A stretch of DNA of 59,375 nucleotides, from assembly GCA_964551485.1 (NCBI GenBank), contig CAZKDU010000001.1, positions 1 through 59,375 of the forward strand, given 5' to 3'. A program made the position numbers and the translations under genes. Below are positions 23,168 through 56,796 of this stretch, piece after piece (within the stretch, counting starts at the first letter, position 1; the number at the start of each line of letters is the position of its first letter). The stretch comes from an uncultured Burkholderiaceae bacterium (GTDB lineage: Bacteria > Pseudomonadota > Gammaproteobacteria > Burkholderiales > Burkholderiaceae_C). The notes beneath the pieces are model-generated. The model saw only the letters and a program-made list of their open reading frames with translations, was not told the origin of the DNA and searched no databases.

Positions 23168-23180
23168 TGAGATAAATGGG
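23168..23180. repeat. candidate prophage terminus (tail/dam side), 5'-TG...
   Basis: TGAGATAAATGGG matches 11 of 13 positions with the reverse complement of 56784-56796. It lies 12 nt after the GT39 stop codon. Confidence 0.5.
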
Positions 23181-23227
23181 TTAGCGCGCATATTACGCTG
23201 TACGAAACGTAATTCCGCGTCAGGAAA

Positions 23228-23437
23228 TCAGCTCCGGCCGGCAGCCACCGCCACAAGCTCCACCCCCCGCTTGATCACCTGCAGCGTGTCATGCAGCTTG
23301 CCCGGCTTGCAGCCTGCGGTAGCGGCCGCCAGGGGCCTGGCCAGGCCGTCGACCAGGTGCAGCCTAGCTGCCTCACGCTGAGGGCCGTCGCGCAGGCGCA
23401 GCAGGGTGGCCAGGGCCTCGAATTGCTCCGCCGTCAT
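23228..23437 (-). CDS. small HTH DNA-binding protein (KorA/TrfB-like, recalled)
   Basis: ATG at 23437 overlaps the upstream stop (ATGA). MTAEQFEALATLLRLRDGPQREAARLHLVDGLARPLAAATAGCKPGKLHDTLQVIKRG resembles sigma-70 region-4-like HTH proteins. Confidence 0.55.
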   Translation of the reverse strand: MTAEQFEALATLLRLRDGPQREAARLHLVDGLARPLAAATAGCKPGKLHDTLQVIKRGVELVAVAAGRS

Positions 23438-23679
23438 GGATTGCGCTGGTGCCACTCCAGCGCCTCCTTGTTGAGACGAATCAGCCGCTGAGCCAGGTCG
23501 TGCAGCGGCACACCGCGCGCCAGCTCGTGGCCCTGGAATGCGTCCAGCGTGGACTTGTCGGCCAGGATGTCGGTGTACCCGTTGCCCCGCACCACGTCGA
23601 AGCGCAGGCCGCTGATGTGGACCAGGCTGGCACCGTCGCGGCGCCAGGCCTTGTGCCAGTTGTGGTGCTTGCCGGTCAT
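23434..23679 (-). CDS. hypothetical phage protein (81 aa)
   Basis: ORF track. 4-nt overlaps with both neighbours. Balanced composition. Confidence 0.55.
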   Translation of the reverse strand: MTGKHHNWHKAWRRDGASLVHISGLRFDVVRGNGYTDILADKSTLDAFQGHELARGVPLHDLAQRLIRLNKEALEWHQRNP

Positions 23680-23978
23680 GCGCGCCCCGGTTGGTGGCTG
23701 TACCCGCCGCCGCGCTCGTCTTCCAGGCGCGCCTCGGCGATCAGCTCCTCTTGCACCGGGTCAGGTGCCCCGCCCTCGGCCAGGTGCGCGCGGTACCAGG
23801 TGGTGAGCAGCCCGGCGATGGCGTCCTCGGTGCTCAGGGCGTTGGCCGACAGGCCGCTGGCCTCGCGCACGCGCTCGATGACGGCGGTATCGAAGCTCAC
23901 GCCCCCGTCAGCGTCGCGCGAGAGCTTGAGGTCGGCATAGGTCAAGCCGTCCGGGATGGTGATGGCGACCTTGCTCAT
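23676..23978 (-). CDS. hypothetical phage protein (100 aa)
   Basis: ORF track. 4-nt overlaps with both neighbours. Confidence 0.55.
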   Translation of the reverse strand: MSKVAITIPDGLTYADLKLSRDADGGVSFDTAVIERVREASGLSANALSTEDAIAGLLTTWYRAHLAEGGAPDPVQEELIAEARLEDERGGGYSHQPGRA

Positions 23979-24223
23979 GGCTTGACCTCGATGCCGGCAG
24001 GCAGCGGCTGGTAGGGAGCGGTGGCCACGCCGGTGATGGGGTCGCGCATGGGCCGGTTGTCCGGGTTGGCACGGGCCACGGCCTGCGCCTGGTGCATGGT
24101 GAGCTTGCCGTCCAGGCCGGCGTACAGCTCCGCGCCGTCGAGGGTGCGCAGCCGTGCGGCCCAGTTGCCATTGTGGCCGCCGCCGTAGAGGCGCACGGTG
24201 GTGATTGACTTGACATTGCTCAT
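23975..24223 (-). CDS. hypothetical phage protein (82 aa)
   Basis: ORF trimmed to the ATG at 24223 (MSNVKSITTVRLYGGG...), preceded by GGAGAC. Confidence 0.55.
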   Translation of the reverse strand: MSNVKSITTVRLYGGGHNGNWAARLRTLDGAELYAGLDGKLTMHQAQAVARANPDNRPMRDPITGVATAPYQPLPAGIEVKP

Positions 24224-24315
24224 GATGGTCTCCAGAGAGAGCCGCCTGCCGGGCGGCGTCGGGGTGCGGCTTGATGCCACTCCACTGCCCTGGCTCGCAG
24301 GGCAGCAGGGTGGGA

Positions 24316-24534
24316 TCAGGCCTGCTGGATATCCTTCACGGCGTCCTCTGCCGACGTGTAGCCATCGTCCCATCCGTGAAGCCCGCCATCGGCGCTGACA
24401 AAGACGACGTACCAGAGACCGTCGCGCGGGTCGATGGCCACGGCAGTATCACCGGGAGAGCATTGATTATTCAGGGTCTCGTGCTCGTCGAGCACGACGA
24501 TGTCGCCGGACTGGTGGGGTATGCGCTTTGCCAT
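24316..24534 (-). CDS. hypothetical phage protein (72 aa), first gene of the end operon
   Basis: ORF track. GAGGAG upstream of the ATG. Sits about 60 nt downstream of a near-consensus promoter. Confidence 0.55.
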   Translation of the reverse strand: MAKRIPHQSGDIVVLDEHETLNNQCSPGDTAVAIDPRDGLWYVVFVSADGGLHGWDDGYTSAEDAVKDIQQA

Positions 24535-24649: not shown

Positions 24650-25441
24650 TCAGAAAAGCCCCGCCGGCTCCGCACCCCGGTCCCAGTTGTAGATGATCAC
24701 CTCCCCGCGCTCCACCCGGTTGGCACCTCCGCCCACCGTGTAGTCCAGCGTCAGGCCCTCGATGTCAAAGCCCTCGAAGCACCGCCGAATGTCCGGGTGG
24801 TCATTGAGACTCACGATGGCCTTGCCCTTGATGCCCCGCAGCAGCTGGGCCATGCGCTCGTACTCGGCCCACTCAAACGGCACCCCATAGCCCTCGGTCT
24901 GCCAGTAAGGCGGGTCCAGGTAGAAAAGCGTGTGCGGCCGGTCATAGCGCTCGATGCAGGCCGCCCAGTCCAGCTGCTCGATGTACGTCCCGCCGGCCAG
25001 GCGCAGGTGCGCAGCGCTCAGGTTTTCTTCGATCCGCAGCAGGTTGATCGCCGGCGCCGTGGTGGCCGTGCCGAAAGTCTGCCCCTGCACCTTGCCGCCG
25101 AATGTTTGCTGCTGCAGGTAGAAGAAGCGCGCCGCGCGCTGAATGTCCGTCAGAGTCTCCGGCCGCGTCATCTTCATCCACTCGAAGACCTGGCGGCTGG
25201 TCAGGGCCCACTTGAACTGCCTCACAAACTCCTCCAGGTGGTGGCACACCACCCGGTAGAGATTGACCAGCTCGCCGTTCACGTCGTTGAGCACCTCCAC
25301 CTCAGCCGGGTGGCGGGCAAAGTACACCGCGGCGCCGCCCGCAAAGACCTCGCAGTAGCACGTGTGGGGCGGGAAGCGGCTGAGCAGCAGCTCTACGAGG
25401 CGGCGCTTGCCGCCGATCCAGGGGACGATGGGTGTTGCCAT
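24650..25441 (-). CDS. DNA N6-adenine methyltransferase (D12 class, Dam-like), no cognate endonuclease nearby
   Basis: MATPIVPWIGGKRRLVELLL...EVFAGGAAVYF...LFYLDPPYW (motif I FxGxG and motif IV DPPY). Confidence 0.92.
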   Translation of the reverse strand: MATPIVPWIGGKRRLVELLLSRFPPHTCYCEVFAGGAAVYFARHPAEVEVLNDVNGELVNLYRVVCHHLEEFVRQFKWALTSRQVFEWMKMTRPETLTDIQRAARFFYLQQQTFGGKVQGQTFGTATTAPAINLLRIEENLSAAHLRLAGGTYIEQLDWAACIERYDRPHTLFYLDPPYWQTEGYGVPFEWAEYERMAQLLRGIKGKAIVSLNDHPDIRRCFEGFDIEGLTLDYTVGGGANRVERGEVIIYNWDRGAEPAGLF

Positions 25442-25597: not shown

Positions 25598-26515
25598 TTA
25601 GTTGAGCAGCTCCGACTCAATGTACGCGCCCGCCTTCGCCGTGATCGCCGAGTTGGCAATCTCGGAAGCAAAGCGCACCACCACCGTGCCATTCGCTGCG
25701 GCAGTCAGCGTGCCCTCGATCACCGCGTTGTTGCCTGTGGTGAGCGACGTGGCGTTGGCTGCGGCCGGGCTGTCGTAGGCCGCCACGTGGTTGGTGGTCT
25801 CGGTTGTGGCGGTCAGGGTGTACTGGCTCTTGTAAGACAGCGCCGAGGTGGCTGGCCCGTTGATGGCCCAGCGGCTGCCCGTGGTGGTGGCGGCCGAGGT
25901 GTACGGGATGACCGCCTTGAAGCGGTAGCTCTTGCCAGCCGTGACTGCAAAGCTCAGGCCCGTCACATCGGCCATGGTGTTGGCCGTGGCGTTGTTGTTG
26001 GTCACGTCAGCGGCCAGCATCACCACTTTTCTGGGGCTGTCGAGCAGCAGCGCCCAGTCCGATGGCGACGTGAGGGGGTCGGCGTTGGTGTTGTCACGCA
26101 GCGCGCCGTAGGCGGCCCCGTTGCGAGAGGTCACGTCGTTGGTGGTGTAGGTCGCAGCCGAGCTCCAGGCGCCCTTGGCGCTGAAACCCTTGGCCACCGT
26201 GGTGGCCGAGCTGTAGATGGACGACAGCAGGTTCACCGAGCCCGCGGCGCTGCACAGCGCCTCCACACGGTCACCGGGCTGGAGGTTGATGGGCTTGGGG
26301 TAGGCATACACCTCCCCAGCCGCCAAGGTCCGCCCGCTGACCACCGCCACAGTGGTGGCCAGGGCGGCGTTGAAGACGTTGACCGTCAACGTCACAGGGC
26401 TGCCGCTGTAGTTGTGGGCCACCAGGCCATGCACAGAGGCCTCCACCCCCACGCCCGCCTGGTACACGGTTTGTGCGCTGGTCGCCAGACCCAGCGGCTT
26501 GTTTGTCAGTGCCAT
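25598..26515 (-). CDS. putative distal tail fibre / receptor-binding protein
   Basis: 305 aa, Ser/Thr/Ala/Asn-rich and beta-rich. Last structural gene after the fibre and its chaperone. The call rests on position and composition only. Confidence 0.5.
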   Translation of the reverse strand: MALTNKPLGLATSAQTVYQAGVGVEASVHGLVAHNYSGSPVTLTVNVFNAALATTVAVVSGRTLAAGEVYAYPKPINLQPGDRVEALCSAAGSVNLLSSIYSSATTVAKGFSAKGAWSSAATYTTNDVTSRNGAAYGALRDNTNADPLTSPSDWALLLDSPRKVVMLAADVTNNNATANTMADVTGLSFAVTAGKSYRFKAVIPYTSAATTTGSRWAINGPATSALSYKSQYTLTATTETTNHVAAYDSPAAANATSLTTGNNAVIEGTLTAAANGTVVVRFASEIANSAITAKAGAYIESELLN

Positions 26516-26518
26516 CTG

Positions 26519-26785
26519 TTACTCCTCGGTGCTGATGTTGGGTGGCATTGGCCAGGTGATTTCGGTAGGGAACCCTGGCTGCGCCGAAATGTCTCGCAGC
26601 GCCTGGCGGTAGCCCGCCCAGGCCTGGGCCACCGGCTCGGCAATGTCGCGGCCCTGGGTCCAGTCGCAGGCGGCGATGAGCGCGTTGCGCCGTGTGCGTG
26701 CGCGGTGGGCCTGCTGCGCCAGGTCGATGGGTGGCGCCGGCATCTCGGTGCACACGCCCGTGGTGATGTCAATGACCAGGTTCAC
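26519..26785 (-). CDS. tail fibre assembly/chaperone-like protein (DUF4376-like)
   Basis: GTG at 26785 overlaps the fibre stop (GTGA), with GGAGGA 7 nt upstream. ...RRNALIAACDWTQGRDIAEPVAQAWAGYRQALRDISAQPGFPTEITWP matches the recalled DUF4376 signature. Confidence 0.6.
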   Translation of the reverse strand: MNLVIDITTGVCTEMPAPPIDLAQQAHRARTRRNALIAACDWTQGRDIAEPVAQAWAGYRQALRDISAQPGFPTEITWPMPPNISTEE

Positions 26786-29511
26786 TTGGCGGTCCTCCCA
26801 TAGACCAGGATGGTTCCGAAGTTGAGCGGGTAGCCTCCCCACTCATAAAAGCCGATGGCCGTGGATGGGCCATTCGTGCGGGCGGTCGCGCCCAGGCCTT
26901 GAGAGAGGACGTAGCTGTCGGGGCCAATGGTGCTGAACGCCAGGCCGTTGGATGCGTCCAGGTAATCGATCAAGACGCCGCCCCGGTTGTTGCCACCCTC
27001 GTACATGCCGAGCACACCCAAATACGAAAATCCGGGCCCAGACCCAGTGCCGGTGTCCATGTAGATCATCTTGTTCAGCCCGCTTGACGTGCCCGATGCA
27101 TCGGACACGCTGGTAAAGAAGACCGCCAGGCTCTTGCGGTCGGTCGGCAGGCCCGACAAGGTGATGCTGGAGACCCCACTGGCGCCGGCCACGGTGGCTA
27201 GCAGTTCCCAGTCGCCATTGAGCTTGCTGGGCGGCTCTCCCCCACCGCCACCGCCAAACAGCAGCGCTGCCACCACCGGGTCAAGCCTGTTCAGGGCCGG
27301 GTCCACATAGGCGCGCAGCGCTGCCTCTGTGGGCACCTTGGCCGCGCTGTTGGCGGCCATGGTGGGGTCATTGCTGACCAGCACGCCGCTGTCCTTGAGC
27401 AGCTTGCCACTCACCCCGTCGAACGCCGCCAGGCGGCTGTCTGTGGCCGAGGCGGGGCCAATCACGGCACCGTCCAGGTTGGTCTGCGCCACCGACCAGG
27501 CGGCGCCCACACTGGCCTGGGTACCGCTGGCCGTGCCATCGGTCAGGCACAGCAGAATGTCCCCCGCCTCCACGTTCAGCCCACCAGCGCCGCCAATCTT
27601 GCCCGCCACGCTCACACGGTAGGTCCAGCCACGGTCTGCAGCAGGGTAGTTGGGGCTGGTCGAGCAGTCCACCACGCCCTTGAAAATCATGGCGTCCTGA
27701 GCGCCCAGCAGCTGGTCCACATAGGCCTTGATGGCCTTCTCGGTGGGCACCTTGGCGTCGCTGTTCGCGGCCAGCGTGCCATCGGTGCTCAGCGCCACAC
27801 CCGAGTCCTTGACGCTTTTACCCGTGGTGCCGTTGAACAGCACAAGGTTGTTGTTCGCCGCCGAGGCGGGCCCGGAGACATCGCCCGTGCCCGTGCCGTC
27901 TGCGCCTTTGATGCCGCCGGGCACCACCGCCGCTGCGGTGGCCACGGTGGCCCCAGCAGTGGCGTTGCCGGTGGCCCCGCTGTTGGTGAGCGACACCGTG
28001 GTGGCGTTGGTCACGCTGGCCACGGTGTAGCTGCCACCGCCGGCCACGTAGATGGGTTGGCCCGCCGTCATCCAGCCGGTGTTGCCCACACTCACAGCCA
28101 CCGAGCCACCCACCGCAGGTTGGGTAAAGGCTGCCGTGCTCACGGTGAAAGGGTCTTGCCCCCTGTCGGCAATGCGCTGCACTGTGACCACCGTGTTGCC
28201 ACCTGTGCCATTCAGCGCCCCGGCGCCTGCGATGTAGCTCAGGTTGAGCTTTCTGTAGCCCGTGGCCGTGACCACCGAGGTGATGTAGAAAAACGCAAAG
28301 TTGGCAGCCTGCGAATCGTTGCGGGCCACCTTGAGCACCGCCTTGTTGGGGCTGGTGCTGGTGTTGAGGGTGTCCAGCCAGTTGGTCACGTCTGCCGAGC
28401 CCGCGTTGAGCAGGTCGATGTAGGCCTGTGTGGCTGTGGACAACGTGGCACTGTTGAAGCGAATGACGCCGTTGCCGGGGTCGGCATCGGTCAGGGTGGC
28501 GCTGTAGGTGTACAGGTTGGTGTCACCACCTGGCACGCCCTGCGCGCCGGTGTCGCCAGTGCGAGACCAGGACAGCACCACTGAGTCACCTGCAGCAAAA
28601 CTGCCGGCGCCGCTCAGATACACCACCGGGAAGGTGTCCCAGGTGCCGTTGTCGGTACCGCCTGCGCTGATGCGCAGGGTGTGCCACACCGAGGGGTCGC
28701 CAGCCTTGCGCAGCGTCACGTAGGCCCTGACGCTGGAGTGCGTCGAGTCATCCAGCGTGGCCAGCAGCGTGGCCACTGCACCGCCCAGGGCGTCGGTTTC
28801 GCTGATGTAGATGGCCGTGGCTGAGGCAATGGCCGCGTTATTGACCCGCACCAGACCGGCGCCAGGGTCTGCGGCGGTGGTGCCAGCGTCCCACGTGAAG
28901 CGCAGACCAAAGTCCACACCGTTGGTGCCGCTCACACCGGCTGGGCCGACCAGGCCACCAGTGGGCACGGTGCCACCCACCGGCGCGTTGCCATTGGTGC
29001 CCTGGTTGACCAGGGTCAAGGTGGTGCCGCTGGGCTTGGCACTGACCAGGTAGTAGCCTCCACCCGAGACGAACACCGTCTGCCCCACACTCAGCCATGT
29101 GTGCCCCTGCACCGAGGCGCTGACCGAGCCACCCACCGCAGGTTGGGTGAAGTCGGCCGTGGTGAGCGTGAATGCGTTGGTACCGTTTGTGCCCTGAGGG
29201 CCAGGCTGCCCTGCCGCCAGCACGCTCCAGGCGCTGTAGGTGCCGCTGCCCAGCACGTTGTAGGGCTGAATGGTCAAGGCACCCGTGCCAGCGTTGTAGC
29301 TGGTCACCTTGCCGTAGATGAAGTTCTGCTCCGATGCAAACAGCGTGACGGGCATGCCACTGGCCAGGGCCAGGCCAGCCTGGGTGGTGAGTGACTTGCT
29401 GGTCGAGTCAATGGCCAGGTTGGTGGTGCTTGTGCCGACCGGAAAGTAGAGGTCGTTGAGCATTTGCACGGCCAGCGGCCCGGGCTGCCCAGAAAAGAAT
29501 GGACCTGGCAT
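26782..29511 (-). CDS. tail fibre protein with internal duplications
   Basis: 909 aa. Duplicated FTQPAVGGSV...G...V.GGG.Y.V modules. Duplicated AKVPTE.A..AYVD motif, common in fibres. Gly/Thr/Ala-rich. Confidence 0.75.
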   Translation of the reverse strand: MPGPFFSGQPGPLAVQMLNDLYFPVGTSTTNLAIDSTSKSLTTQAGLALASGMPVTLFASEQNFIYGKVTSYNAGTGALTIQPYNVLGSGTYSAWSVLAAGQPGPQGTNGTNAFTLTTADFTQPAVGGSVSASVQGHTWLSVGQTVFVSGGGYYLVSAKPSGTTLTLVNQGTNGNAPVGGTVPTGGLVGPAGVSGTNGVDFGLRFTWDAGTTAADPGAGLVRVNNAAIASATAIYISETDALGGAVATLLATLDDSTHSSVRAYVTLRKAGDPSVWHTLRISAGGTDNGTWDTFPVVYLSGAGSFAAGDSVVLSWSRTGDTGAQGVPGGDTNLYTYSATLTDADPGNGVIRFNSATLSTATQAYIDLLNAGSADVTNWLDTLNTSTSPNKAVLKVARNDSQAANFAFFYITSVVTATGYRKLNLSYIAGAGALNGTGGNTVVTVQRIADRGQDPFTVSTAAFTQPAVGGSVAVSVGNTGWMTAGQPIYVAGGGSYTVASVTNATTVSLTNSGATGNATAGATVATAAAVVPGGIKGADGTGTGDVSGPASAANNNLVLFNGTTGKSVKDSGVALSTDGTLAANSDAKVPTEKAIKAYVDQLLGAQDAMIFKGVVDCSTSPNYPAADRGWTYRVSVAGKIGGAGGLNVEAGDILLCLTDGTASGTQASVGAAWSVAQTNLDGAVIGPASATDSRLAAFDGVSGKLLKDSGVLVSNDPTMAANSAAKVPTEAALRAYVDPALNRLDPVVAALLFGGGGGGEPPSKLNGDWELLATVAGASGVSSITLSGLPTDRKSLAVFFTSVSDASGTSSGLNKMIYMDTGTGSGPGFSYLGVLGMYEGGNNRGGVLIDYLDASNGLAFSTIGPDSYVLSQGLGATARTNGPSTAIGFYEWGGYPLNFGTILVYGRTAK
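28100..28125. repeat. 26-nt exact direct repeat inside the fibre gene (partner at 29123..29148)
   Basis: ACCGAGCCACCCACCGCAGGTTGGGT is present at both positions. It encodes the FTQPAVGGS start of each duplicated module. Confidence 0.9.
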
Positions 29512-30338
29512 TACCAGCCCTCCATGGTGATTGTGGTGCTGTGGGCTTCAAAAAAATCAAACGTGATGCCCGCTTGTTGACGCTTGCCGTACAGCTGCAG
29601 GTCTTGCTCCAGAACGGTGTCGTCCCACCCAGGCACCACACTCACGAAGATGGGCCGTGACGTGCCATTGGCGCGAATGATTTGCCTCAGACGCGCCCGG
29701 TCGGCCGGCGGCATGTACTGCAGCTGCAGCTTGAGGGTGTCGTACTGCGGGCCTCGGTCGGTCACGCTGTCGCCGCTCTGCGCGCGGCTGGTCTTGCTGG
29801 TGTCTGGGCTGTCGTCCTCCAGGCCGTAGCGGGCGTTGTAGGTCGCCTCCCAAAAGGCACCCGCGACCACCCGCGCACAGTCAATGCACCCCGCCGGGTT
29901 GCCTGGGTCGCTCACGTCAATTTGCAAGCGCTTGGCAGCCACGTGCGCGGGAAACCACTTGCTGGTGCGGCTGGCCCCCCCGTAGGCAAATGCGTTGGCA
30001 TTGAGTGGCTGGGTCCAGTCCCACAGGCTGAGCACCCGCCCTGGGCATGCGTAGACCACCCCCGTGTCGGCCAGCAGGGTGCCGCCGGACGCGGCGTCGT
30101 AAGCCCGGCCGCGCACCGTGGCGCTGGCCGTGAGGTTGATGGCGGGCAGCGCAAAGCCGCCCACGGTCTCAAAGCCGCCCCAGGTGAGCGTGTAGCTCAC
30201 ACTGGTGCCCACCGAGCGGTGCACCTGCGACTTGACGTCCGTCTGCAAGTTGGCAGCCCCCAGCGCGCCCGCCGTCGAGCTGGCCACTATCGTGGCGCGG
30301 TCGGCGGCGTTGTCGTGGATCACGCGCAGGTTGGGCAT
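29511..30338 (-). CDS. hypothetical tail/baseplate-region protein (275 aa)
   Basis: ORF track. Start/stop coupled to its neighbours within the tail module. Confidence 0.5.
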   Translation of the reverse strand: MPNLRVIHDNAADRATIVASSTAGALGAANLQTDVKSQVHRSVGTSVSYTLTWGGFETVGGFALPAINLTASATVRGRAYDAASGGTLLADTGVVYACPGRVLSLWDWTQPLNANAFAYGGASRTSKWFPAHVAAKRLQIDVSDPGNPAGCIDCARVVAGAFWEATYNARYGLEDDSPDTSKTSRAQSGDSVTDRGPQYDTLKLQLQYMPPADRARLRQIIRANGTSRPIFVSVVPGWDDTVLEQDLQLYGKRQQAGITFDFFEAHSTTITMEGW

Positions 30339-30341
30339 GGC

Positions 30342-30665
30342 TTACTCGGCGGCAGCAGTGGCAGGGGCTGGCGCGCTGGGCTCTGGCGCTGGGGCGGGCA
30401 CCGGGCCGGGCGCTGCGCCACCGCCCAGCGGCCGCACCTCCAGGCCCAGCACCGCAAACTGCTGATTCAGGGTGACCAGCAGCTCCGGTGTCATGTCCTC
30501 GGCGATCAGTGGTGTCTGCTGGTGTGCCGGCTGGCTCATCACCTGGCCAGTGGCGTTGACTGCCAGCGTCACCTGGTTGAGCACGGCGGCTGCACCGTAG
30601 GCGGGTGGCTGCACCTGGTTAGGAAACTGCAGGGTCAGGCTGATGGGAATGGTCAAACGAGGCAT
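30342..30665 (-). CDS. hypothetical tail-region protein (107 aa) with a Pro/Ala-rich tail
   Basis: ORF track. Lies within the tail module. Confidence 0.45.
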   Translation of the reverse strand: MPRLTIPISLTLQFPNQVQPPAYGAAAVLNQVTLAVNATGQVMSQPAHQQTPLIAEDMTPELLVTLNQQFAVLGLEVRPLGGGAAPGPVPAPAPEPSAPAPATAAAE

Positions 30666-30696
30666 GGTGTGCTCCAGTAAAAATGGGTGTGATGGG

Positions 30697-46476: not shown

Positions 46477-46569
46477 GCGGCGCCCCCGGGCTCCAAACAA
46501 ATGGCGGGCGTGGGGCTGGTGCGGCCAGCGGCGCTGGCAAAGAATTCAGCCAGGTCAACACCACAGGGG

Positions 46570-46848: not shown

Positions 46849-46857
46849 GAGAGCACT

Positions 46858-48245: not shown

Positions 48246-48250
48246 CCGAT

Positions 48251-49563: not shown

Positions 49564-49565
49564 CG

Positions 49566-50171
49566 GTGCTGCGCCTCACGGGCATGGTGCTGGCCTGGCT
49601 GGGCTTGCTGTGGGCGGTGCTGCCCGGCGGCGCCCATGCCCAGGTGCCGCCAGCCGCTGCAGCCCACCGCGCCACGCTGACGCGGGCCGCTCATTCGCAA
49701 TGGGGGCTGGACGCCCCGCTGCCGGCCCTGGCGGCCCAGGTGCACCAAGAGAGTGGCTGGAACGCCATGGCCACCAGCCCGGTGGGCGCACAGGGCCTGG
49801 CGCAGTTCATGCCGGCCACGGCCACCTGGTGGTGTGAGCTGAATGGCATGCGCCCGGCAGACTGCCAGCCGCGCAACCCGGCCTGGGCGCTGCGCGCGCT
49901 GGTGGGCTACGACAAATGGCTGTACGACCGCACGCCGCTGCGCTACAGCACGCGTGACCGCATGTGGGTGGCCCTGCGGGCCTACAACGGCGGCTTGGGC
50001 CACTGGCAGGCCGAGGCGCGACTGGCCCATGGCAGCACCCGCGAGGCGGTGGACGCTGCCTGTGGCCTGGCGCGGCGCGCCGCCCTGCATTGCAGCGAAA
50101 ACCTTGGCTACCCGGCGCGCATTTTGGGTGTGCTGCAGCCGCGCTATGCCACTTGGGGGGCCTTGCTGTGA
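49566..50171 (+). CDS. lytic transglycosylase (SLT domain) endolysin with signal/SAR-like N-terminus
   Basis: ...VHQESGWNAMATSPVGAQGLAQFMPATA... (catalytic Glu context). GTG at 49566 or ATG at 49584. Confidence 0.85.
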   Translation: MLRLTGMVLAWLGLLWAVLPGGAHAQVPPAAAAHRATLTRAAHSQWGLDAPLPALAAQVHQESGWNAMATSPVGAQGLAQFMPATATWWCELNGMRPADCQPRNPAWALRALVGYDKWLYDRTPLRYSTRDRMWVALRAYNGGLGHWQAEARLAHGSTREAVDAACGLARRAALHCSENLGYPARILGVLQPRYATWGALL

Positions 50172-50581
50172 AGCCCCTGACTCTGGCTCTGCTCACGCTG
50201 TGCGCCTGCCTGGGCGCTGGCGTGGGCGGTTTCTTCTACGGCAAGCACCTGGGCGAGCGGCTGGAGGCCGGTGCCCGCGACGCGAGCGCGGTGGGCCAGC
50301 TGACCACCCTCATAGAGGCGCAGAAGGGCCTGGTGGCCCAGGCCAACCTGGCCAGCCGCGCCATGCGCCAAGCCACCTCGGCCCGCCTGCTGGCCGACCA
50401 ACAGTCCACCCTGGAGCTTCAAGATGCGCTACGCGCCACTGCCGACAGCCGTGCTGGCTGTGTGTTTGACCCTGGCGTCTTGCGCCAGCTCACCGCCGCC
50501 CGTGACCGCGCTGCCCAGGCCGCTGCCAGCGGACTACGTGCAGCGGTGCCCGCCCCCGGCGCCAGCGCCGCAAAGCCCTGA
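50168..50581 (+). CDS. i-spanin (Rz-like)
   Basis: GTG overlaps the SLT stop (GTGA). N-terminal TM LTLALLTLCACLGAGVGGFFYG followed by a coiled region. Confidence 0.7.
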   Translation: MKPLTLALLTLCACLGAGVGGFFYGKHLGERLEAGARDASAVGQLTTLIEAQKGLVAQANLASRAMRQATSARLLADQQSTLELQDALRATADSRAGCVFDPGVLRQLTAARDRAAQAAASGLRAAVPAPGASAAKP

Positions 50582-50684
50582 GGCCGACCCGATGTTGCTG
50601 GCACTCAAGGGCATGTACGACCTGTATGGCCTGTGCGCGGGCCGCCTGGCCGACCTGTTGGACTGGCTGGAGGCCACGCCATGA
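50424..50684 (+). CDS. o-spanin (Rz1-like lipoprotein), overlapping the Rz 3' end in another frame
   Basis: MRYAPLPTAVLAVCLTLASC (lipobox LASC), Pro-rich, 86 aa. Confidence 0.7.
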   Translation: MRYAPLPTAVLAVCLTLASCASSPPPVTALPRPLPADYVQRCPPPAPAPQSPEADPMLLALKGMYDLYGLCAGRLADLLDWLEATP

Positions 50685-51040
50685 CGGTGCAGCTGGAGCT
50701 GTGGCACGTGCTGAGCCTGGGCGTGACGATCATCGGTGGCTACTGGGCGGTGGCCAAGCTGCTGGCCAGCCAGGCCAAAAGCAGCCTGGACCTGCGTTTT
50801 GCCGCGGTGACGGAGGGGCTGGGCCGCATTGAGCGGGCGCGCAGCGATGACCGCAGCGAGCTGAACCAGCTGCACCGCGATTTCATGGAGTTCAAGGTGC
50901 ACTTGCCCTTGCATTACGTGCAGCGCGAGGACTACGTGCGCGGCCAGAGCGTGATCGAGGCCAAGCTGGACAGCCTGGCCGTGAAGCTGGAGAACGTGCA
51001 GCTGCGCTCGGCACTGAATTCCAAGGGAGAGGGCCCATGA
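50681..51040 (+). CDS. DUF2730-like phage protein
   Basis: ATG at 50681 overlaps the Rz1 stop. N-terminal TM then coiled coil. The position before the terminase genes matches Mu-like phages. Confidence 0.55.
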   Translation: MTVQLELWHVLSLGVTIIGGYWAVAKLLASQAKSSLDLRFAAVTEGLGRIERARSDDRSELNQLHRDFMEFKVHLPLHYVQREDYVRGQSVIEAKLDSLAVKLENVQLRSALNSKGEGP

Positions 51041-51345
51041 ACATTGACCAGGCCAAGATTCGCCGTGAGGCGCTGCGCTGGCTGATTTTGCTGACGCTGA
51101 ACAACGCGCGGCCCATGGGCGCCTACGAGAGTGTGGTGCTGGCGGTGGCGCAAAGCGAGTACCCGGACGCCACCCCGCTGGAGCTGCGGCGCGAGCTGGA
51201 CTACCTGGAGGAGCGCGAGCTTGTGAAGCTGCGCAAGGAGCCCAGCGGCCGCTGGCACGCGGAGCTGACGCGCTGCGGCATTGACGTGGCCGAGTACACG
51301 GTGGAGTGCGATCCGGGCATTGCGCGCCCGGTGAAGTACTGGTGA
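51037..51345 (+). CDS. small winged-helix-like phage protein (102 aa)
   Basis: ORF track. 4-nt overlap upstream. ...LRRELDYLEERELVKLRKEPSGRWHAELT... Confidence 0.5.
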   Translation: MNIDQAKIRREALRWLILLTLNNARPMGAYESVVLAVAQSEYPDATPLELRRELDYLEERELVKLRKEPSGRWHAELTRCGIDVAEYTVECDPGIARPVKYW

Positions 51346-51348: not shown

Positions 51349-51918
51349 ATGGGCCGCAAGAGCAGCATCACGCGCCTGCCCAGCGAGGTCAAGGCTTACA
51401 TCGAGGCCATGCTGGCCACGGGCTCGCAGACGCTGGATGAGCTGATTGCCGACCTGCAGGAGCGGTTTCCGGCCGAGGCGCAGGCCAAGAGCCTGCCGAG
51501 CCGCAGCGCGCTGGGCCGCTACGGCCAGAAGCTGGACCGCCGGCTCTCTGCCATCAAGGCGAGCACGGAGGCGGCCAAGCTGATCCAGGCGCAGGCCGGC
51601 GATAACCAGGACGCGCGCAGCGAGGCGCTGACGGCGTTGGTGCAGACCGAGCTGTTTGAGGCCATTTTGCAGCTGCAGGATGCCGACGAGGCCGACGAGC
51701 CCGGTGACCGCGTGGCCATGCTGAGTGCGGCGGCCAAGAACATTGCCACGCTCACGCGCAGCAGCGTGAACCTGAAAAAGTTTCAGGCCGAGGTGGAAGA
51801 AGCCACCCGGAAGAAGCTGCTGGAGGAGCAGCGCGTGAAGCTGGATGCGCTGCAGAGCAAGGGTGGCGTGAGCGTGCAGACGCGCGACGCGATCCGCGAG
51901 GTGCTGGGGATTTCGTGA
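51349..51918 (+). CDS. DUF3486 protein (Mu gp27-like terminase small subunit)
   Basis: MGRKSSITRLPSEVKAYIEAMLATGSQTLDELIADLQERFP... Immediately upstream of the large terminase, with overlapping stop/start. Confidence 0.75.
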   Translation: MGRKSSITRLPSEVKAYIEAMLATGSQTLDELIADLQERFPAEAQAKSLPSRSALGRYGQKLDRRLSAIKASTEAAKLIQAQAGDNQDARSEALTALVQTELFEAILQLQDADEADEPGDRVAMLSAAAKNIATLTRSSVNLKKFQAEVEEATRKKLLEEQRVKLDALQSKGGVSVQTRDAIREVLGIS

Positions 51919-53321
51919 TGGTGATGCGACCGGGCAACGCCAAGGTGATTCCGGCCAACCCGGAGGGGATTTTTCTGCCGTTTCAAAGTGCGTGGATCAA
52001 GGACGATTCGCGCCTGAAGCTGATGGAGAAAAGCCGGCAGATCGGCCTGAGCTGGTCCACCGCCTACAAGGCCGATGAGCGCACGGCGGCCCAGGGCGCC
52101 AAGCAGGACCAATGGGTGAGCAGCCGCGACGACCTGCAGGCGCGGCTGTTCATTGAGGACTGCAAGATGTGGGCGGGCGTGATGAACATGGCCGCGCGCG
52201 ACCTGGGCGAGGTGGTGATCGACAGCAAGGACAAGCTCACGGCCTATGTGCTGGAGTTCGCCAGTGGCCGGCGCATCCACAGCATGAGCAGCAACCCGGA
52301 CGCGCAGGCGGGCAAGCGCGGCGGGCGGATTCTGGACGAGTTTGCGCTGCACCCGGACCCTCGCAAGCTGTGGTCGATTGCCTACCCGGGCATCACCTGG
52401 GGCGGCAGCATGGAGGTGATCAGCACGCACCGGGGCAGCCACAACTACTTCAACCAGCTGGTGCGCGAGGTGCGCGAGGGTGGCAACCCGAAGAAGATCA
52501 GCCTGCACCGGGTGACGCTGAAGGACGCGCTGGACAGCGGGTTTCTGTTCAAGCTGCAGCAGATGCTGCCTGCCGACCATGAGGTGCAGGCGCTGGATGA
52601 GGCGGCCTACTTTGACTTCATTCGCAGTGGGTGTGCGGATGAGGAGTCGTTCCTGCAGGAGTACATGTGCGAGCCGGCGGACGACGATGTGGCGTTCCTG
52701 GAGTACGCGCTGATCGCGGCGGCCGAGTACCCCAACTGGTTTGACTGGCAGCAGCGCGAGCTGGGCCCGCTGTTTGTGGGCGTGGACATTGGCCGCAAGA
52801 AGGATTTGACGGTGATCTGGGTGCTGGAGCGCCTGGGCGACACCTTCTACACCCGCGAGGTGATTTCGCTGCAGAACATGACCAAGGGCGAGCAGGAGAA
52901 GGTGCTGTGGCCCTGGATTGAGCTGAGCGCGCGCACGTGTATTGACGCCACGGGCCTGGGCATTGGCTGGGTGGACGACGCCCAAACGAAGTTTGGCAAG
53001 ACCCGGGTGGAGGGGGTGACCTTCACCGGCCCGGTGAAGGAGGCGCTGGCCTACCCGGTGCGCGGCGCGTTCGAGGACCGCAAGGTGCGCATTCCCTACG
53101 ACCCGAAGGTGCGGGCTGACCTGCGCTCTGTGACCAAGCAGGTGACGGCGGCGGGGAACATCCGTTTCACGGCCGAGCGCACGCCTGACGGCCACGCCGA
53201 CCGCTTCTGGGCGCTGGCGCTGGGCCTGCACGCGGGCACGGGCCCCACGGGCCTGCCGGGTGTGAGCAGCCGCCCGCGCACGAGCGGGCCGCGCGGTGTG
53301 GACATGAACGGCTACCAATGA
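51915..53321 (+). CDS. terminase large subunit (Mu gp28-like)
   Basis: 468 aa. ...SRQIGLSWSTAY... (Walker A-like) and ...GRILDEFALH... (Walker B). C-terminal nuclease region. Confidence 0.88.
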   Translation: MMVMRPGNAKVIPANPEGIFLPFQSAWIKDDSRLKLMEKSRQIGLSWSTAYKADERTAAQGAKQDQWVSSRDDLQARLFIEDCKMWAGVMNMAARDLGEVVIDSKDKLTAYVLEFASGRRIHSMSSNPDAQAGKRGGRILDEFALHPDPRKLWSIAYPGITWGGSMEVISTHRGSHNYFNQLVREVREGGNPKKISLHRVTLKDALDSGFLFKLQQMLPADHEVQALDEAAYFDFIRSGCADEESFLQEYMCEPADDDVAFLEYALIAAAEYPNWFDWQQRELGPLFVGVDIGRKKDLTVIWVLERLGDTFYTREVISLQNMTKGEQEKVLWPWIELSARTCIDATGLGIGWVDDAQTKFGKTRVEGVTFTGPVKEALAYPVRGAFEDRKVRIPYDPKVRADLRSVTKQVTAAGNIRFTAERTPDGHADRFWALALGLHAGTGPTGLPGVSSRPRTSGPRGVDMNGYQ

Positions 53322-53331
53322 AGAGAGCCCT

Positions 53332-54831
53332 ATGGCAAACCAACTGACTCAGCACATTGCCAGCCGCGCGCGGAGCACGGATTTCGTGTTCATGGGCATG
53401 CTGCTGCCCAACCCGGACCCGATCTTGAAGGCGCAGGGCCGAGACATTCGGGTGTACCGTGACATGCGCTCGGACGCGCTGATTGGCGGGAGCATTCGCC
53501 GCCGCAAGAGCGCGGTGAAGGCCCTGGACAACGGGGTGGACCGTGGCCGCTCGGCCAGCCGCGTGACCAAGGCGGTGCAGGAGATGCTGCAAGGCCTGGA
53601 CCTGGATGGGCTGATTGGCGACACGCTGAACGCGTGCTTTTACGGCTACCAGCCCCTGGAGGTGATGTGGGAGCGGCGCGGCGCCATGCTGGTGCCGGCC
53701 AGTGTGGTGGCCAAGCCGCCGGAGTGGTTTGGGTTTGACGCGGACAATTTGCTGCGCTTCAAGTCGCGCGAAGCGCTGCTGCACGGCGAGGAGCTGCCGC
53801 CGCGCAAGTTCTTGCTGCCGCGGCAAGAGCCCACTTACACCAACCCCTATGGCTTGCCCGACCTGAGCATGTGCTTCTGGCCCCTGGTATTCAAGAAGGG
53901 GGGCATGAAGTTCTGGCTGGCCTTTGTGGAGAAGTACGGCAGCGCGTTTGCCTTGGGCAAGCTGCCCAGGGGGGCGTCGGACAAGGACCGCACGCTGTTG
54001 CTGGACAGCCTTGAGGCGTTGATCCAGGACGGGGTGGCCACGATTCCCGACGATGGCAGTGTGGAGCTGCTGGAGATGGCGGGCAAGAGCGCCAGCTCTG
54101 ACTTGCACCAGGCGCTGGTGATGCACTGCCGGGGCGAGATTTCGATTGCGCTGCTGGGCCAGAACCAGACAACGGAGGCGAGCGCGAACAAGGCCAGCGC
54201 CACGGCCGGCCTGGAGGTGACGGAGGACCTGCGCGACGCGGACGCGAAGCTGGTGGCGGCGACGGTGAATGAGCTGATCAAGTGGTTCTGCGAGCTGAAC
54301 TTTGCGAGTGTGCTGCCGCCGGTGTTCAGCCTGTGGGACCAGGAGGCGCAGGACCGGCTGCAGGCCGAGCGGGACAAGAGCAACTACGCGGCGGGCGCGC
54401 GTTTCACGAACGCGTATTTCATGCGCGCCTACGGCTACCAGGAGGGTGACTTGCAGTACCAGGCACCGGGGGGCACCACGCCCTTGGCGTCTGCGGCCGG
54501 CGGCCGGGTGGTACCGGCGGCAGAGCCGGAGCAGGACGCGGCCGCGTTTGCCGAGGCCGCGCTGCAGGTGGCTGGCGCAGACCCCATGGCGGCCGAGGTG
54601 GATGAGCTGGCGGCCGCTGCGGCGCCGAGCTGGACGGGCATGGTGCGCCAGCTGGAGGCGCTGGTGGCAAGGGCGGAGTCGATGGAGCAGCTGCAGGCGG
54701 CGCTGCTGTCGGCCTACGGCGGTGCACCCGAGCTGACCCGTGTCATGGGCGCGGCCATGGCGCTGGCGGAACTGCGCGGCATGGCGGCGGTGCAGGCCGA
54801 GTCGGGTGATGATGGAGCGGCCGGTGCCTGA
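53332..54831 (+). CDS. portal protein (DUF935, Mu gp29-like)
   Basis: 499 aa. Position and sequence (...YGYQPLEVMWE...FKKGGMKFWLAFVEKYG...) fit Mu-type portals. Confidence 0.9.
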   Translation: MANQLTQHIASRARSTDFVFMGMLLPNPDPILKAQGRDIRVYRDMRSDALIGGSIRRRKSAVKALDNGVDRGRSASRVTKAVQEMLQGLDLDGLIGDTLNACFYGYQPLEVMWERRGAMLVPASVVAKPPEWFGFDADNLLRFKSREALLHGEELPPRKFLLPRQEPTYTNPYGLPDLSMCFWPLVFKKGGMKFWLAFVEKYGSAFALGKLPRGASDKDRTLLLDSLEALIQDGVATIPDDGSVELLEMAGKSASSDLHQALVMHCRGEISIALLGQNQTTEASANKASATAGLEVTEDLRDADAKLVAATVNELIKWFCELNFASVLPPVFSLWDQEAQDRLQAERDKSNYAAGARFTNAYFMRAYGYQEGDLQYQAPGGTTPLASAAGGRVVPAAEPEQDAAAFAEAALQVAGADPMAAEVDELAAAAAPSWTGMVRQLEALVARAESMEQLQAALLSAYGGAPELTRVMGAAMALAELRGMAAVQAESGDDGAAGA

Positions 54832-56026
54832 ACCCGGGTTTGACGTGGGGTTCAACACCCCATGGGAGCCACAGATTGCGTTTCTGCGCAACAAGCTGCG
54901 GTTGCCCAGCGAGCGTTGGGACGACATTCAGCGCAGCGCGCATGACCGGGCCTTCATGGTGGCCGGGGCGGTGCAGGCGGACTTGCTGGCAGACCTGCAC
55001 CAGGCGGTGACGCAGAGCATTGCCGAGGGCACCGGGCTGGAGGCGTTTCGGCGTGATTTCAAGGAGATTGTGGCCAGGCGCGGCTGGACGGGATTCACCG
55101 GCAGCGACAGCCAAGCTGGGCTGGCCTGGCGGACACGGGTGATCTACCAGACCAACCTGAGCACGAGCTATGCGGCCGGGCGGTACAAGCAGCTGACCGA
55201 GCCCGGGTTTGCAAAGCTCAACCCGTATTGGCGCTACCTGCACAATGACTCGGTGCTGCACCCGCGGCCGCAGCACGTGGCCTGGCATGGCCTGACGCTG
55301 CCGCGCGAGCACGCTTTCTGGGCGGCCCACTTTCCGCCCAATGGCTGGGGGTGCCAGTGCCGGGTGACGGCGGTGAGCCGGCGCGAGGGCGAGGCGAGTG
55401 CGCGCGCCGGGGTTGGGGAACCGCCCGAGGGCTGGAACACGCGCGATGGCAAAACCGGGGCGCCGGTTGGAATCGACCGGGGGTTCGACTACACGCCTGG
55501 CGCGAGCGTGGACACGTCGCTGCGGCAGTTGGTGCAGGACAAGCTGATCACGTACCCGCCGGCCATTGCGACAGCGCTCTCGCGCGACGTGACCCGCTAC
55601 CTGAATGCCACGGACGCGCCGGCGGCCTTTGTGGCCAAAGCGCTGGCCGACAAGCAGCTGGTGGAGACGCTGTGGATGGGCTTTGTGGAGGACCCGAAGC
55701 GGCTGAGCCAGGTGCTGGGGCAGGACGTGACGGGCTATCTGGTGACGCTGCCGGCCGAGGCAGCGCGCCATGTGGAGGCCAGCCATGGCATGGATGGGGG
55801 CACGCAGCGGGCGCCTGCGCCTGAGGACTTCAACCGGTTGATGGAGGTGCTGAACGGGGCCGACAGCATCAAGCCAGGGAATGCCACCTCATCCACCGGT
55901 GATCCACGGGTGGTGGTGACGAAAGCCATTGGTGCTGAGGAGTTCAGGGCCGTGTTCGAGCTGCGGCCGGGCAAAAAAAACAGGGCCTTGGCCCTGCTTT
56001 CGTTCGTGGTGAAAGTCACGCAATGA
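54809..56026 (+). CDS. head morphogenesis protein (MuF / SPP1 gp7 family) with a C-terminal extension
   Basis: ...NPYWRYLHNDSVLHPRPQHVAWHGLTLP...FPPNGWGCQCRV (MuF core), plus about 100 extra C-terminal residues. ATG at 54809 within the 54740 ORF. Confidence 0.88.
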   Translation: MMERPVPEPGFDVGFNTPWEPQIAFLRNKLRLPSERWDDIQRSAHDRAFMVAGAVQADLLADLHQAVTQSIAEGTGLEAFRRDFKEIVARRGWTGFTGSDSQAGLAWRTRVIYQTNLSTSYAAGRYKQLTEPGFAKLNPYWRYLHNDSVLHPRPQHVAWHGLTLPREHAFWAAHFPPNGWGCQCRVTAVSRREGEASARAGVGEPPEGWNTRDGKTGAPVGIDRGFDYTPGASVDTSLRQLVQDKLITYPPAIATALSRDVTRYLNATDAPAAFVAKALADKQLVETLWMGFVEDPKRLSQVLGQDVTGYLVTLPAEAARHVEASHGMDGGTQRAPAPEDFNRLMEVLNGADSIKPGNATSSTGDPRVVVTKAIGAEEFRAVFELRPGKKNRALALLSFVVKVTQ

Positions 56027-56136
56027 GGATTCCTCTCGCAAGCCGTCGACCTGTACGTCCGAAACGGGACCGAGTTCTGACTCGGGAGCCGATGCACTTG
56101 CGCGAGGAGCCTCGATTTTAAGAGGAGTGCACGGCC

Positions 56137-56670
56137 ATGACAAGTTTCACCCTGCAGGTTCACGACAAGCTGGTTCGTGACGCCCTGTCCAGGTTGCAGG
56201 CCAGGCTCGAGCAGGCCCAGCCGGTGCTGGAGAGCATTGGCGAGCACTCGGTGGAGCGCATCAAGCGCCGGTTCGAGACCAGCTCGGCCCCGGACGGCAC
56301 GCCCTGGAAGCCCAACAGCCAGTCCACCCTCGACCAGGTCGCCAGCCGCCTGGGGAAGTCGTTCAGGAAAAAGGGTGGTGCGCTCAACGCGAAGGGGCAG
56401 GCCCGGGTGACCGGCAAGAAGCCGCTGATCGGCGAATCGCGGGCGCTGAGCACGCAGATCGTGCGCTTCACCAGCCAGGACAGCCTGACCGTGGCCAGCA
56501 CGCCCATCTACGCTGCGATCCAGCACCTGGGAGGCCAAGCCGGCCGTGGCGGCAAGGTGACGATCCCGGCCCGGCCCTTCATGCCCATCATGCCGGACGG
56601 CCAGCTCTACCCCGAGGAGCGGGACGCGATTCTGCTGGACCTTAACAACTACCTCGCCGACCTCGTTTGA
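56137..56670 (+). CDS. virion morphogenesis protein (Mu G / gp31-like)
   Basis: 177 aa. ...FETSSAPDGTPWKPNS...PLIGESRAL...IYAAIQHLGGQAGRGGKVTIPARPF... AAGAGGAG RBS. Confidence 0.85.
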   Translation: MTSFTLQVHDKLVRDALSRLQARLEQAQPVLESIGEHSVERIKRRFETSSAPDGTPWKPNSQSTLDQVASRLGKSFRKKGGALNAKGQARVTGKKPLIGESRALSTQIVRFTSQDSLTVASTPIYAAIQHLGGQAGRGGKVTIPARPFMPIMPDGQLYPEERDAILLDLNNYLADLV

Positions 56671-56783
56671 GGCCAGAATAGGGGCCTCCAGCCCTCCGCC
56701 GGGCGTTCCGCCGGTGTGTTTCGCGTGAGAAAAGTGTTTTTCGGAGGCCCGTCCCGATTTTTCCCATCAAGGCCCCCAAAATC

Positions 56784-56796
56784 CCCATTTATTGCA
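56784..56796. repeat. candidate prophage terminus (head-gene side), ...CA-3'
   Basis: CCCATTTATTGCA is the reverse complement of TGCAATAAATGGG. Preceded internally by the direct repeats GTGTTTCGCG (56716-56725) and GTGTTTTTCGG (56734-56744). Confidence 0.45.

Follow-up and report, generated by a model that had tools for sequence, protein, structure and literature searches.

The window, a stretch of 59,375 nucleotides from an uncultured Burkholderiaceae bacterium, carries a defective Mu-type transposable prophage, a B3-like siphovirus, that spans 33,695 bp (33.7 kb) from 23135 to 56829. The genes were called by PHROG and Pfam scans over the ORFs of the element, and these scans bear out the gene content and order given in a preliminary description of this DNA. 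The features are as follows.

23129-23134, no strand: left copy of the target-site duplication, CCTGGG (from the sequence and the host ORF restored when the flanks are joined)
23135-23200, plus strand: dam-proximal phage end, 5'-TGAAGCGCGCCGCGATATTTGA...GGTGAGATAAATGGG (end-to-end match, homologous ends of relatives, X4 contig)
23228-24534, minus strand: four or five small ORFs close to the phage end, function unknown (ORF list; no PHROG match)
24650-25441, minus strand: dam-like DNA adenine methyltransferase (phrog_56, E 1.9e-86)
25598-33185, minus strand: distal tail module, all frames open (PHROG tail fibre, fibre assembly, phrog_8610, phrog_8917), comprising a fibre (25598-26515), a fibre-assembly protein (26519-26842) and tail proteins of 909, 275, 107, 338 and 490 aa (26782-33185, PHROG scan)
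33182-38773, minus strand: tape measure protein, 1863 aa (phrog_25966, E 3.8e-109)
38821-39554, minus strand: tail assembly chaperone pair (phrog_569, phrog_680)
39551-39667, minus strand: truncated Cys-rich ORF after Gam, 38 codons (translation)
39554-39556, no strand: deletion joint, a 3-bp overlap TGG where the Gam side meets the chaperone side (spanning and diverging contigs)
39664-40185, minus strand: Gam (phrog_491, E 2e-58)
40195-41830, minus strand: early ORFs of unknown function, 92, 145/109 and 309 aa (phrog_2161 for the 309-aa ORF)
41909-42886, minus strand: MuB-like transposition ATPase (phrog_296, E 5.8e-54)
42911-44755, minus strand: MuA-like DDE transposase (phrog_310, E 3.6e-113)
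44734-47046, minus strand: start of the early operon (phrog_925, phrog_1368, phrog_1748), with a ner-like HTH protein (46858-47046), a 168-aa ORF, a regulator (45664-45990) and a 302-aa ORF
47142-47681, plus strand: HTH repressor, divergent from the early operon (PF01381, phrog_8)
47691-49189, plus strand: moron-like cassette of low GC content, 55-59% (composition; no Pfam or PHROG match)
49228-51345, plus strand: lysis region (PF13272, PF01464, phrog_462), with a holin (49228-49563), an SLT transglycosylase endolysin (49500-50171), a spanin-like lipoprotein and small ORFs
51349-56670, plus strand: packaging and head-start block (phrog_426, phrog_2/5909, phrog_113, phrog_220, phrog_26), with gp27-like TerS (51349-51918), TerL (51915-53321), portal (53332-54831), MuF (54809-56026) and G (56137-56670)
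56671-56829, plus strand: G-proximal phage end, ...TTGGAATATCTCAATACCCGTCA-3' (terminal motif common to nine relatives)
56830-56835, no strand: right copy of the target-site duplication, CCTGGG (sequence)

Both ends lie 33 bp further out than the 23168 and 56796 first assigned to them. TGAAGCG... begins at 23135 and ...CCGTCA finishes at 56829, and the two ends, reading TGA...TCA and identical at 31 of 50 positions in register, form the 5'-TG...CA-3' inverted repeats of a transposable phage. Homologues of the dam-proximal end are present in the relatives G001 and G006, the G001 homologue of the dam-like protein (83% identical) adjoins that phage's own end, and the X4 contig matches from exactly 23135, preceded by a different flank. 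When the flanks are joined without the prophage, a host ORF reappears and its stop overlaps the start of the next gene, and host genes (esterase-like, acyl carrier protein) continue from ~56.99 kb, so that a single transposition event would have placed the element in the 3' end of a glycosyltransferase-like host gene. A search for the empty site in 40 relatives, none of the same genus, found no orthologous site.

No ORF of the element matched a protease/scaffold, capsid, head-completion or tube family in the PHROG and Pfam scans, as had been reported from the sequence, and the terminator, GemA and Mor families were likewise without a match. Neither tblastn against the element with the missing-family proteins of three relatives nor a search with Mor and GemA of the relative BLA1 returned anything. 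Across the whole MAG (65% complete, 443 contigs) PF10124 had no match, and the missing genes were not found as a Mu-type set elsewhere in it, although at this completeness another Mu-type prophage of the cell may have escaped the search. Contig C3, which carries tube and chaperone genes, was considered as the missing block and rejected, as it is a complete, unrelated lambdoid prophage.

The arrangement of the element, in which early and tail genes share one strand, the genes from lysis to G occupy the other and G lies beside the phage end, recurs in its relatives. Among MuF loci with at least 3 kb of downstream sequence 55 were informative, and in 30 of these, including four isolate genomes, no head gene follows G and non-phage DNA stands there instead; host genes after G were confirmed in L001, L021 and L023. 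In nine loci, whose ends were located by a motif search after blastn-short had missed them, the terminal motif GAATATCTCA..TCA lies 130-170 nt past G, with differing DNA beyond and flanks that are all different. On the MuF tree the window belongs to a clade of nine, every member of which is G-terminal (SH-aLRT 99). All seven G-terminal genomes examined, which include isolates of Rhodoferax (two), Paracidovorax anthurii and Diaphorobacter caeni, carry MuA, MuB, GemA, Mor, protease/scaffold, capsid and gp36 on one strand, joined in some of them by Gam and DUF3164, and in the two Rhodoferax genomes the same strand continues with terminator, tube, chaperone and tape measure. The prophage of the isolate Rhodoferax sp. 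U2-2l measures 39.6 kb and its homologous ends are flanked by a perfect 6-bp duplication, CAAGTA, while comparison of the G001 flanks gave no matching target duplication.

We conclude that this split layout is the native order of the lineage, and that the lineage is an undescribed yet common group of Mu/B3-like prophages in Burkholderiales. An intact member would have one arm running through repressor, lysis, TerS, TerL, portal, MuF and G to the end, and a second running through ner, A, B, Gam, DUF3164, GemA, Mor, protease/scaffold, capsid, connectors, terminator and tube, and on through chaperone, tape measure, tail and dam to the other end. The G-terminal label requires at least eight changes on the MuF tree; some G-terminal loci may be truncated remnants themselves, or MuF may move between layouts. 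Protein similarities to the relatives are moderate: MuA shares 59-69% identity with the transposases of G001, G007, G009, G010 and G014, the best relative of Gam reaches 68%, the chaperones placed after the tube gene in relatives are 30-37% identical to that of the window, and the early ORFs at 40195-41830 have syntenic homologues downstream of MuB in relatives. The nearest Gam context, L105, is a B3-type phage of collinear order that carries Mor at its end. A scan of viral contigs with the MuF protein alone gave no match, a search of a 5.8-billion protein set found no homologue of the chaperone except itself, and the right arm, compared with phage records by megablast, returned solely a TerL match and a 95-bp match. 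That relatives might themselves lack a capsid was suggested by PF10124 (Mu gpT), which matched one of 14 relatives' genomes, and there on another contig; the idea was rejected because the capsids belong to families unmatched by PF10124, namely PF03864 in the two scanned. When the 14 genomes were searched for the tape measure, most proved to have tails of other types.

In the split order the place of the missing genes is between Gam and the chaperone, which is where the window carries its joint. The called chaperone gene (111 aa) starts with the ATG at 39554 and not at 39569; its G form occupies 39219-39554 and an overlapping shifted frame, the frameshift arm, reaches 38821. The gap from the Gam stop to this ATG, put earlier at about 110 bp, measures 109 bp and is filled by the truncated Cys-rich ORF, the TGA of which overlaps the chaperone ATG. 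The joint is covered with 0 mismatches by contigs of three runs from two studies (X1 at 38791-40652, X2 at 39381-39856 and, from the other study, X3 at 39516-39666). Phages in X5 and X10, 95-99% identical, match up to 39556 and then diverge, whereas X4 matches from 39554 and has other sequence beyond the joint, where its Cys-rich frame runs on (…CADCPAKPTLCVCCG); in G001 a Cys-rich ORF of ~90 aa occupies the same position. X4, X5 and X10 are represented by short contigs and 30-letter loose ends only, with no intact sibling assembled.

Based on these data we propose that a single deletion in a native split-layout B3-like prophage explains the element, a reading that we hold to be very probable. 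The deletion, of roughly 7.5-8 kb as estimated from the 39.6-kb U2-2l relative, would have extended from within the Cys-rich gene after Gam to a point 2 bp short of the start codon of the chaperone, its content and size being deduced from relatives with no more than about 70% protein identity. It would also account for the absence of Mor and GemA, and its 3-bp overlap fits illegitimate recombination. The deletion is private to this copy, the split layout is not. Since all remaining genes are still open, the deletion looks recent; lacking Mor, capsid, connectors and tube, the prophage alone would be unable to make virions. The deleted form occurs at the same chromosomal site in bacteria of two studies' metagenomes, which fits vertical inheritance of a defective prophage.

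The preliminary description had read the element as a collinear BcepMu/B3-type prophage that underwent an inversion of 39.55-56.67 kb, private to it, and lost 5-6 kb through intramolecular Mu-type transposition. The collinear order that it assumed, with early genes leftward and repressor to tape measure rightward, does occur in relatives (Lsp-JY19, L053); in these about 6 kb from protease to tube lie between G and chaperone, and geometrically a single inversion turns one order into the other. The early-to-G block is thus inverted relative to the collinear order, yet this was no event in the present element, as the clade and the isolate genomes share the order, the end sequences and target duplications of their own, and the inversion must therefore long predate this copy. 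The structural genes are really gone, but from between Gam and chaperone and not from after G, and therefore one deletion suffices and no inversion is needed. The 159 bp from the G stop at 56670 to the phage end at 56829, and the end sequence itself, are conserved in relatives, and therefore 56.67 kb is not a breakpoint. A rearrangement made by transposition would put a phage terminus at the joint, whereas the sole private joint, 39554-39556, lies 16.4 and 17.3 kb from the ends and no end-like sequence, only the 3-bp overlap, was found within 39400-39720. We therefore regard a private inversion by transposition as highly improbable. A capsid-less architecture served in trans, offered as the other reading, finds no support, as every intact relative of the same layout has its own capsid block. 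An artefact, by which phage fragments were misjoined at 39.55 kb or the phage misended at 56.8 kb, could be suspected in a MAG so fragmented and incomplete, and assemblies often break at the ends of transposable phages. Against it, the per-run Logan contigs described above span the internal joint, contigs of X1 and X3 cover both host junctions without a mismatch and X2 covers the left one, and the ends carry matching inverted repeats and a target duplication; the junctions, for which misassembly had been raised as a concern, are genuine, and an artefact is so improbable that we scarcely entertain it.

It is conceivable, though improbable, that the element is a natural mini-Mu or satellite-like element that borrows capsid, connector and tube from an intact sibling or from the C3 lambdoid prophage. 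The ends and the transposase, packaging and tail-tip genes are kept, all intact, the deleted form was found in two studies, and the new joint gives the chaperone ATG an ATGA overlap with the truncated ORF. X4 holds a near-identical phage at another site in another organism, so that siblings are active, and this phage is the candidate helper. The C3 tube is ~32% identical to that of a Mu-like relative, and the C3 chaperone and a tape-measure segment are ~30% and 59% identical to those of the window; the C3 capsid and portal, however, are of an unrelated type (HK97-fusion, lambdoid). The host junctions are identical in every run with the deleted joint, which argues for vertical descent and not mobility, and among these runs no mobilisation of the deleted form was found, while X4, the copy at another site, is without the joint. 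With Mor lost, the late promoters would need the activator of the helper, and the genome is 33.7 kb against ~39.6 kb in the one relative measured. Phage satellites have helper-exploiting functions of their own and occupy many sites, whereas this element has one pair of host junctions and a gene content that is a plain subset of that of intact relatives. That the deleted genome transposes and is packaged when a sibling supplies Mor, capsid, connectors and tube, as a parasite of its own lineage, has in our view a slim chance of being true.

Under the single-deletion reading the element itself is an ordinary prophage recently crippled, and its apparent scrambling is the standard layout of its lineage. 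As the end of this lineage directly follows G, callers that expect collinear late genes mis-set the boundaries, here by 33 bp. The at least eight layout changes on the MuF tree hint at recurrent whole-arm inversions or module swaps in transposable phages. With its joint located to within 3 bp, and with near-identical siblings that lack the deletion in public runs, the element offers a natural and dated case of a prophage decaying through a single illegitimate recombination.

Transposable phages ('Saltoviridae' sensu Toussaint) have a MuA-type transposase adjoining a MuB-type ATPase, as here, and duplicate 5 or 6 bp at unrelated sites, as seen in CCTGGG here, in CAAGTA of U2-2l and in the differing flanks of nine relatives and X4. 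They further have Mor/C-type activators and GemA, and genomes of about 36-40 kb in which the set of head and tail genes is complete, all of which this shorter copy lacks. The B3-like subgroup is recognised by a 6-bp duplication and by divergent arms around the immunity region, both present here, and by late genes that all lie on the repressor arm, which does not apply to the window and seven relatives, where the tail is on the early arm. In B3 the late genes are all collinear on the other arm. Pseudomonas phage B3 and its kin share with the window the DDE transposase, MuB-like ATPase, Gam, ner-like regulator, divergent arms from a central repressor region, siphovirus tail and long tape measure. 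The lineage differs from B3 in having protease to tail after Mor on the early arm and only lysis to G on the repressor arm, and this copy in being without GemA, Mor and the capsid-to-tube genes. B3 is reported to make 6-bp target duplications and to have gemA near one genome end (PMC8705779). The Leptospira transposable prophages of group TG1 also have two divergent arms and 6-bp repeats (PMC8705779), but, as compared by the text of that paper, their hosts and sequences are unrelated and Mor/C is altogether absent from them.

Leptolyngbya phage Lsp-JY19 (PP438411), an isolated virion whose TerL has 77% DNA identity to that of the window, shares MuA, Gam, lysis, TerL, portal, MuF, G, chaperone and a 5.7-kb tape measure, yet there G is followed collinearly by protease, capsid, connectors, tube, chaperone and tape measure; relative to it and L053 the window has the early-to-G block reversed and no capsid block. 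The prophages of Rhodoferax sp. U2-2l and BLA1, Paracidovorax anthurii CFPB 3232 and Diaphorobacter caeni NR2-3-3-1 have the layout of the window in all four cases (MuF 51-60% and MuA 37-65% identical), with homologous ends, the G-proximal one included, in both Rhodoferax prophages and the 6-bp duplication in U2-2l. All four keep GemA, Mor, protease/scaffold, capsid and gp36, and three of them DUF3164, none of which the window has; U2-2l and BLA1 also keep, before the chaperone, the terminator and tube that the window is without. Laboratory mini-Mu and defective Mu resemble the element in that the ends and transposition genes are kept, an internal late block is lost and a helper would be needed for particles, whereas the window's element is of natural origin and retains terminase, portal and tail-tip genes.

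The element in the window is a single clean transposition insert, as indicated by its two ends, the CCTGGG direct repeat that flanks it, the host ORF that is restored by its removal, and the agreement with phage B3, which generates a 6-bp target duplication (PMC8705779). In the preliminary description the shared ATAAATGGG had been taken to mark the ends, at 23168 and 56796, yet four results place them 33 bp farther out on each side. The features are as follows.

Features of the window (gene content of the prophage from profile scans)
22683-23134 and 56836-56993: glycosyltransferase-like host gene, with the prophage within its 3' part and its last 52 codons severed
23135-56829: prophage, 33,695 bp, CCTGGG direct repeat on both flanks
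Prophage, minus strand: dam, tail fibre, fibre-assembly protein, five tail proteins, 1863-aa tape measure, chaperone pair, Gam, early ORFs, MuB, MuA, ner-like gene
Prophage, plus strand: HTH repressor, low-GC cassette without family match, holin, SLT endolysin, lipoprotein, TerS, TerL, portal, MuF, G
47691-49189, after the repressor: low-GC stretch (55-59%, against ~69% G+C for the window) encoding 184-aa and 442-aa ORFs
Downstream of G: ~160 bp of phage end, then host genes (glycosyltransferase-like ORF tail, esterase-like gene, acyl carrier protein)

Over 50 nt, the two ends agree in register at 31 positions when each is read outward; they start with TGA and finish with TCA. A contig of X4, one of the public sequencing runs that we read as per-run contigs, carries a 99%-identical phage from another organism, in which the match begins exactly at 23135 and the flank differs. 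The prophage end of the Rhodoferax isolate BLA1, ...TTTGAATATCTCAACTCCCCTCA, is homologous to the window end ...TTGGAATATCTCAATACCCGTCA, and the ends in two genomes of relatives (G001 and G006), ...TCAAATATC[G/T]C[G/C][G/C]CGCGCTTCA, are homologous to the window end ...TCAAATATCGCGGCGCGCTTCA. Excising the element and one repeat copy in silico rejoins the host ORF, which becomes 52 codons longer and whose stop overlaps the start of the next gene (GTGA). The interrupted gene now stops 22 nt into the phage end.

The window spans the first 59,375 bases of contig C1 (70,928 bp), one of 443 contigs in a 2.4-Mb MAG whose completeness is estimated at 65%; no tRNA genes are present in the window. The gene list and the missing head and tube genes of the preliminary description were upheld, as profile scans of the element gave no ORF match to the protease/scaffold, capsid, decoration, head-completion, terminator, tube, GemA or Mor families, and tblastn with the same proteins from three relatives gave zero matches within it. 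PF10124 had zero matches across the entire MAG. Neither ORF of the low-GC stretch matches a Pfam or PHROG family; weak homologues (26%) sit at the equivalent position in two of the compared loci, L010 and L046.

The order of the modules is native to the lineage. MuF relatives were collected from 80 genomic loci in Betaproteobacteria and neighbours, and the layout was counted in the 55 loci with at least 3 kb beyond G. The collinear order that the preliminary description had expected is real in 25 of these 55, in which the genes past G are protease, capsid, connectors, tube, chaperone and tape measure (annotated examples are L053 and the isolated phage Lsp-JY19), and head genes are absent after G in the other 30; in L001, L021 and L023 plainly cellular genes come after G. 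The motif GAATATCTCA..TCA lies 130-170 nt past G in nine loci, the DNA beyond being different in each. In the MuF tree the window falls inside a clade of nine (SH-aLRT 99), in all of which the phage ends just after G, and this G-terminal state requires at least eight changes over the tree. The opposite arm was retrieved for seven G-terminal prophages. Four of them belong to isolates (two Rhodoferax, Paracidovorax anthurii and Diaphorobacter caeni), the other three to MAGs. In all seven, MuA, MuB, early ORFs (including Gam, DUF3164 and RdgC in some), GemA, Mor, protease/scaffold, capsid, cement in some maps and gp36 lie on the transposase strand. In the two Rhodoferax genomes, which share the tail type, terminator, tube, chaperone and tape measure continue that strand, and the 39.6-kb prophage of Rhodoferax sp. 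U2-2l has a perfect 6-bp duplication, CAAGTA. Because of the count, the shared ends, the G-terminal clade and the arms of the seven relatives, the split layout, with an early and capsid-to-tail arm opposite a repressor and lysis-to-G arm, is this lineage's working architecture.

Variants of the layout were seen in single loci. In L016, a leftward series of GemA, Mor, scaffold, capsid, gp36 and tape measure begins immediately upstream of MuF-G, and in L024 FluMu_N, gp36, terminator and tube run leftward, directly adjoining the lysis/TerS block. Portal and MuF are neighbours in the window, unlike in the Rhodoferax isolates L006 and L007, where ~4 kb separate the two genes (portal match at ~4.5-4.7 kb, MuF at 10.0 kb).

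Compared with the split layout, one contiguous block is missing in the window, between Gam and the chaperone. In relatives it holds DUF3164, RdgC in some, GemA, Mor, protease/scaffold, capsid, connectors, terminator and tube, ~7.5-8 kb as judged from the U2-2l map. Misassembly, which the preliminary description had allowed for, is excluded, since contigs of three runs cross the joint of the deletion with 0 mismatches: X1 (38791-40652), X2 (39381-39856) and, from a different study, X3 (39516-39666). The deleted form has identical host junctions in these runs, both ends being crossed in X1 and X3 and the left end in X2, which fits one bacterial lineage carrying the defective prophage. In X5 and X10, whose phages are ~95% identical, the chaperone-side match ends at 39556, 2 bp before the ATG, and other sequence (...CCCACCCTTCAAGAGCCACC) lies beyond; in X4 the Gam-side match runs from 39554, with other sequence beyond. 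These two matches share 3 bp, TGG, at their edges. The Gam-side breakpoint falls within a small Cys-rich ORF that is uninterrupted in X4 (…CADCPAKPTLCVCCG) and has a counterpart of ~90 aa in G001. Together these features have the appearance of a simple deletion by illegitimate recombination, probably a recent one, as every retained gene is still open.

The preliminary description had proposed an inversion plus deletion through intramolecular transposition. The structural block is truly missing, as it held, but the inversion fails: the split layout is clade-wide, and neither a phage terminus nor an end-like sequence is found at the joint. With both breakpoints also far from the ends, the deletion bears no transposition signal. 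A helper-dependent, mini-Mu life style of the deleted form is very improbable in our estimate. The rest of the MAG, which the preliminary description had suggested searching, did yield a second prophage, on contig C3 (~500-21700; L095, L096), a complete lambdoid siphovirus unrelated to the first (TerS, TerL, head-tail joining protein, portal, protease-capsid fusion, head closure protein, terminator, tube, chaperone, 1743-aa tape measure and CII-like regulator). The C3 tube shares ~32% identity with its counterpart in the Mu-like relative L053, the C3 chaperone ~30% with the window chaperone, and one stretch of the C3 tape measure 59% with that of the window (72% at the DNA level across 400 bp), so part of the C3 tail is related to Mu-like counterparts. 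However, the C3 capsid-protease fusion and portal are of an unrelated type, no third prophage was found in the MAG, and the deleted joint was never found with other flanks.

Simple deletion from a split-layout phage is thus the reading we retain, and an intact sibling is suggested to be active now or recently, as the X4 phage has another organism as its source (organism A, a different study), another left-end flank and no deletion joint. It is 95-100% identical across tail, early and head genes, in pieces on window 23135-56535.

A CRISPR array lies on contig C16 of the same MAG (1136-2933, L099), with at least 30 repeats (GGTCTATCCCCGCTCACGCGGGGCAACC) and 33-nt spacers. Of the spacers, two match the window prophage at 100% identity, with protospacers at 25922-25954 and 30544-30576, in the fibre gene and the 107-aa tail gene, and two others match the C3 prophage, also at 100% identity; the triplets flanking the protospacers show no clear PAM. 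Either the array is self-targeting or the bin mixes lysogenic and immune strains. On contig C12 of the MAG (3302-3466, L098), 165 bp within a 600-aa ORF are 98.8% identical to the tape-measure gene (34935-35099), similarity ending on both sides, which could reflect gene conversion, a shared domain or a local assembly chimera.

Loss of Mor would leave the late promoters without activator, and loss of scaffold, capsid, connectors and tube would make particle formation impossible; with repressor, transposase and ends retained, transposition upon derepression would be conceivable. The element is a defective B3-like transposable siphovirus, a known kind. Its split layout is common but little described, and in some Leptospira transposable prophages the TerS-TerL-portal block likewise lies apart from the other structural genes (PMC8705779).
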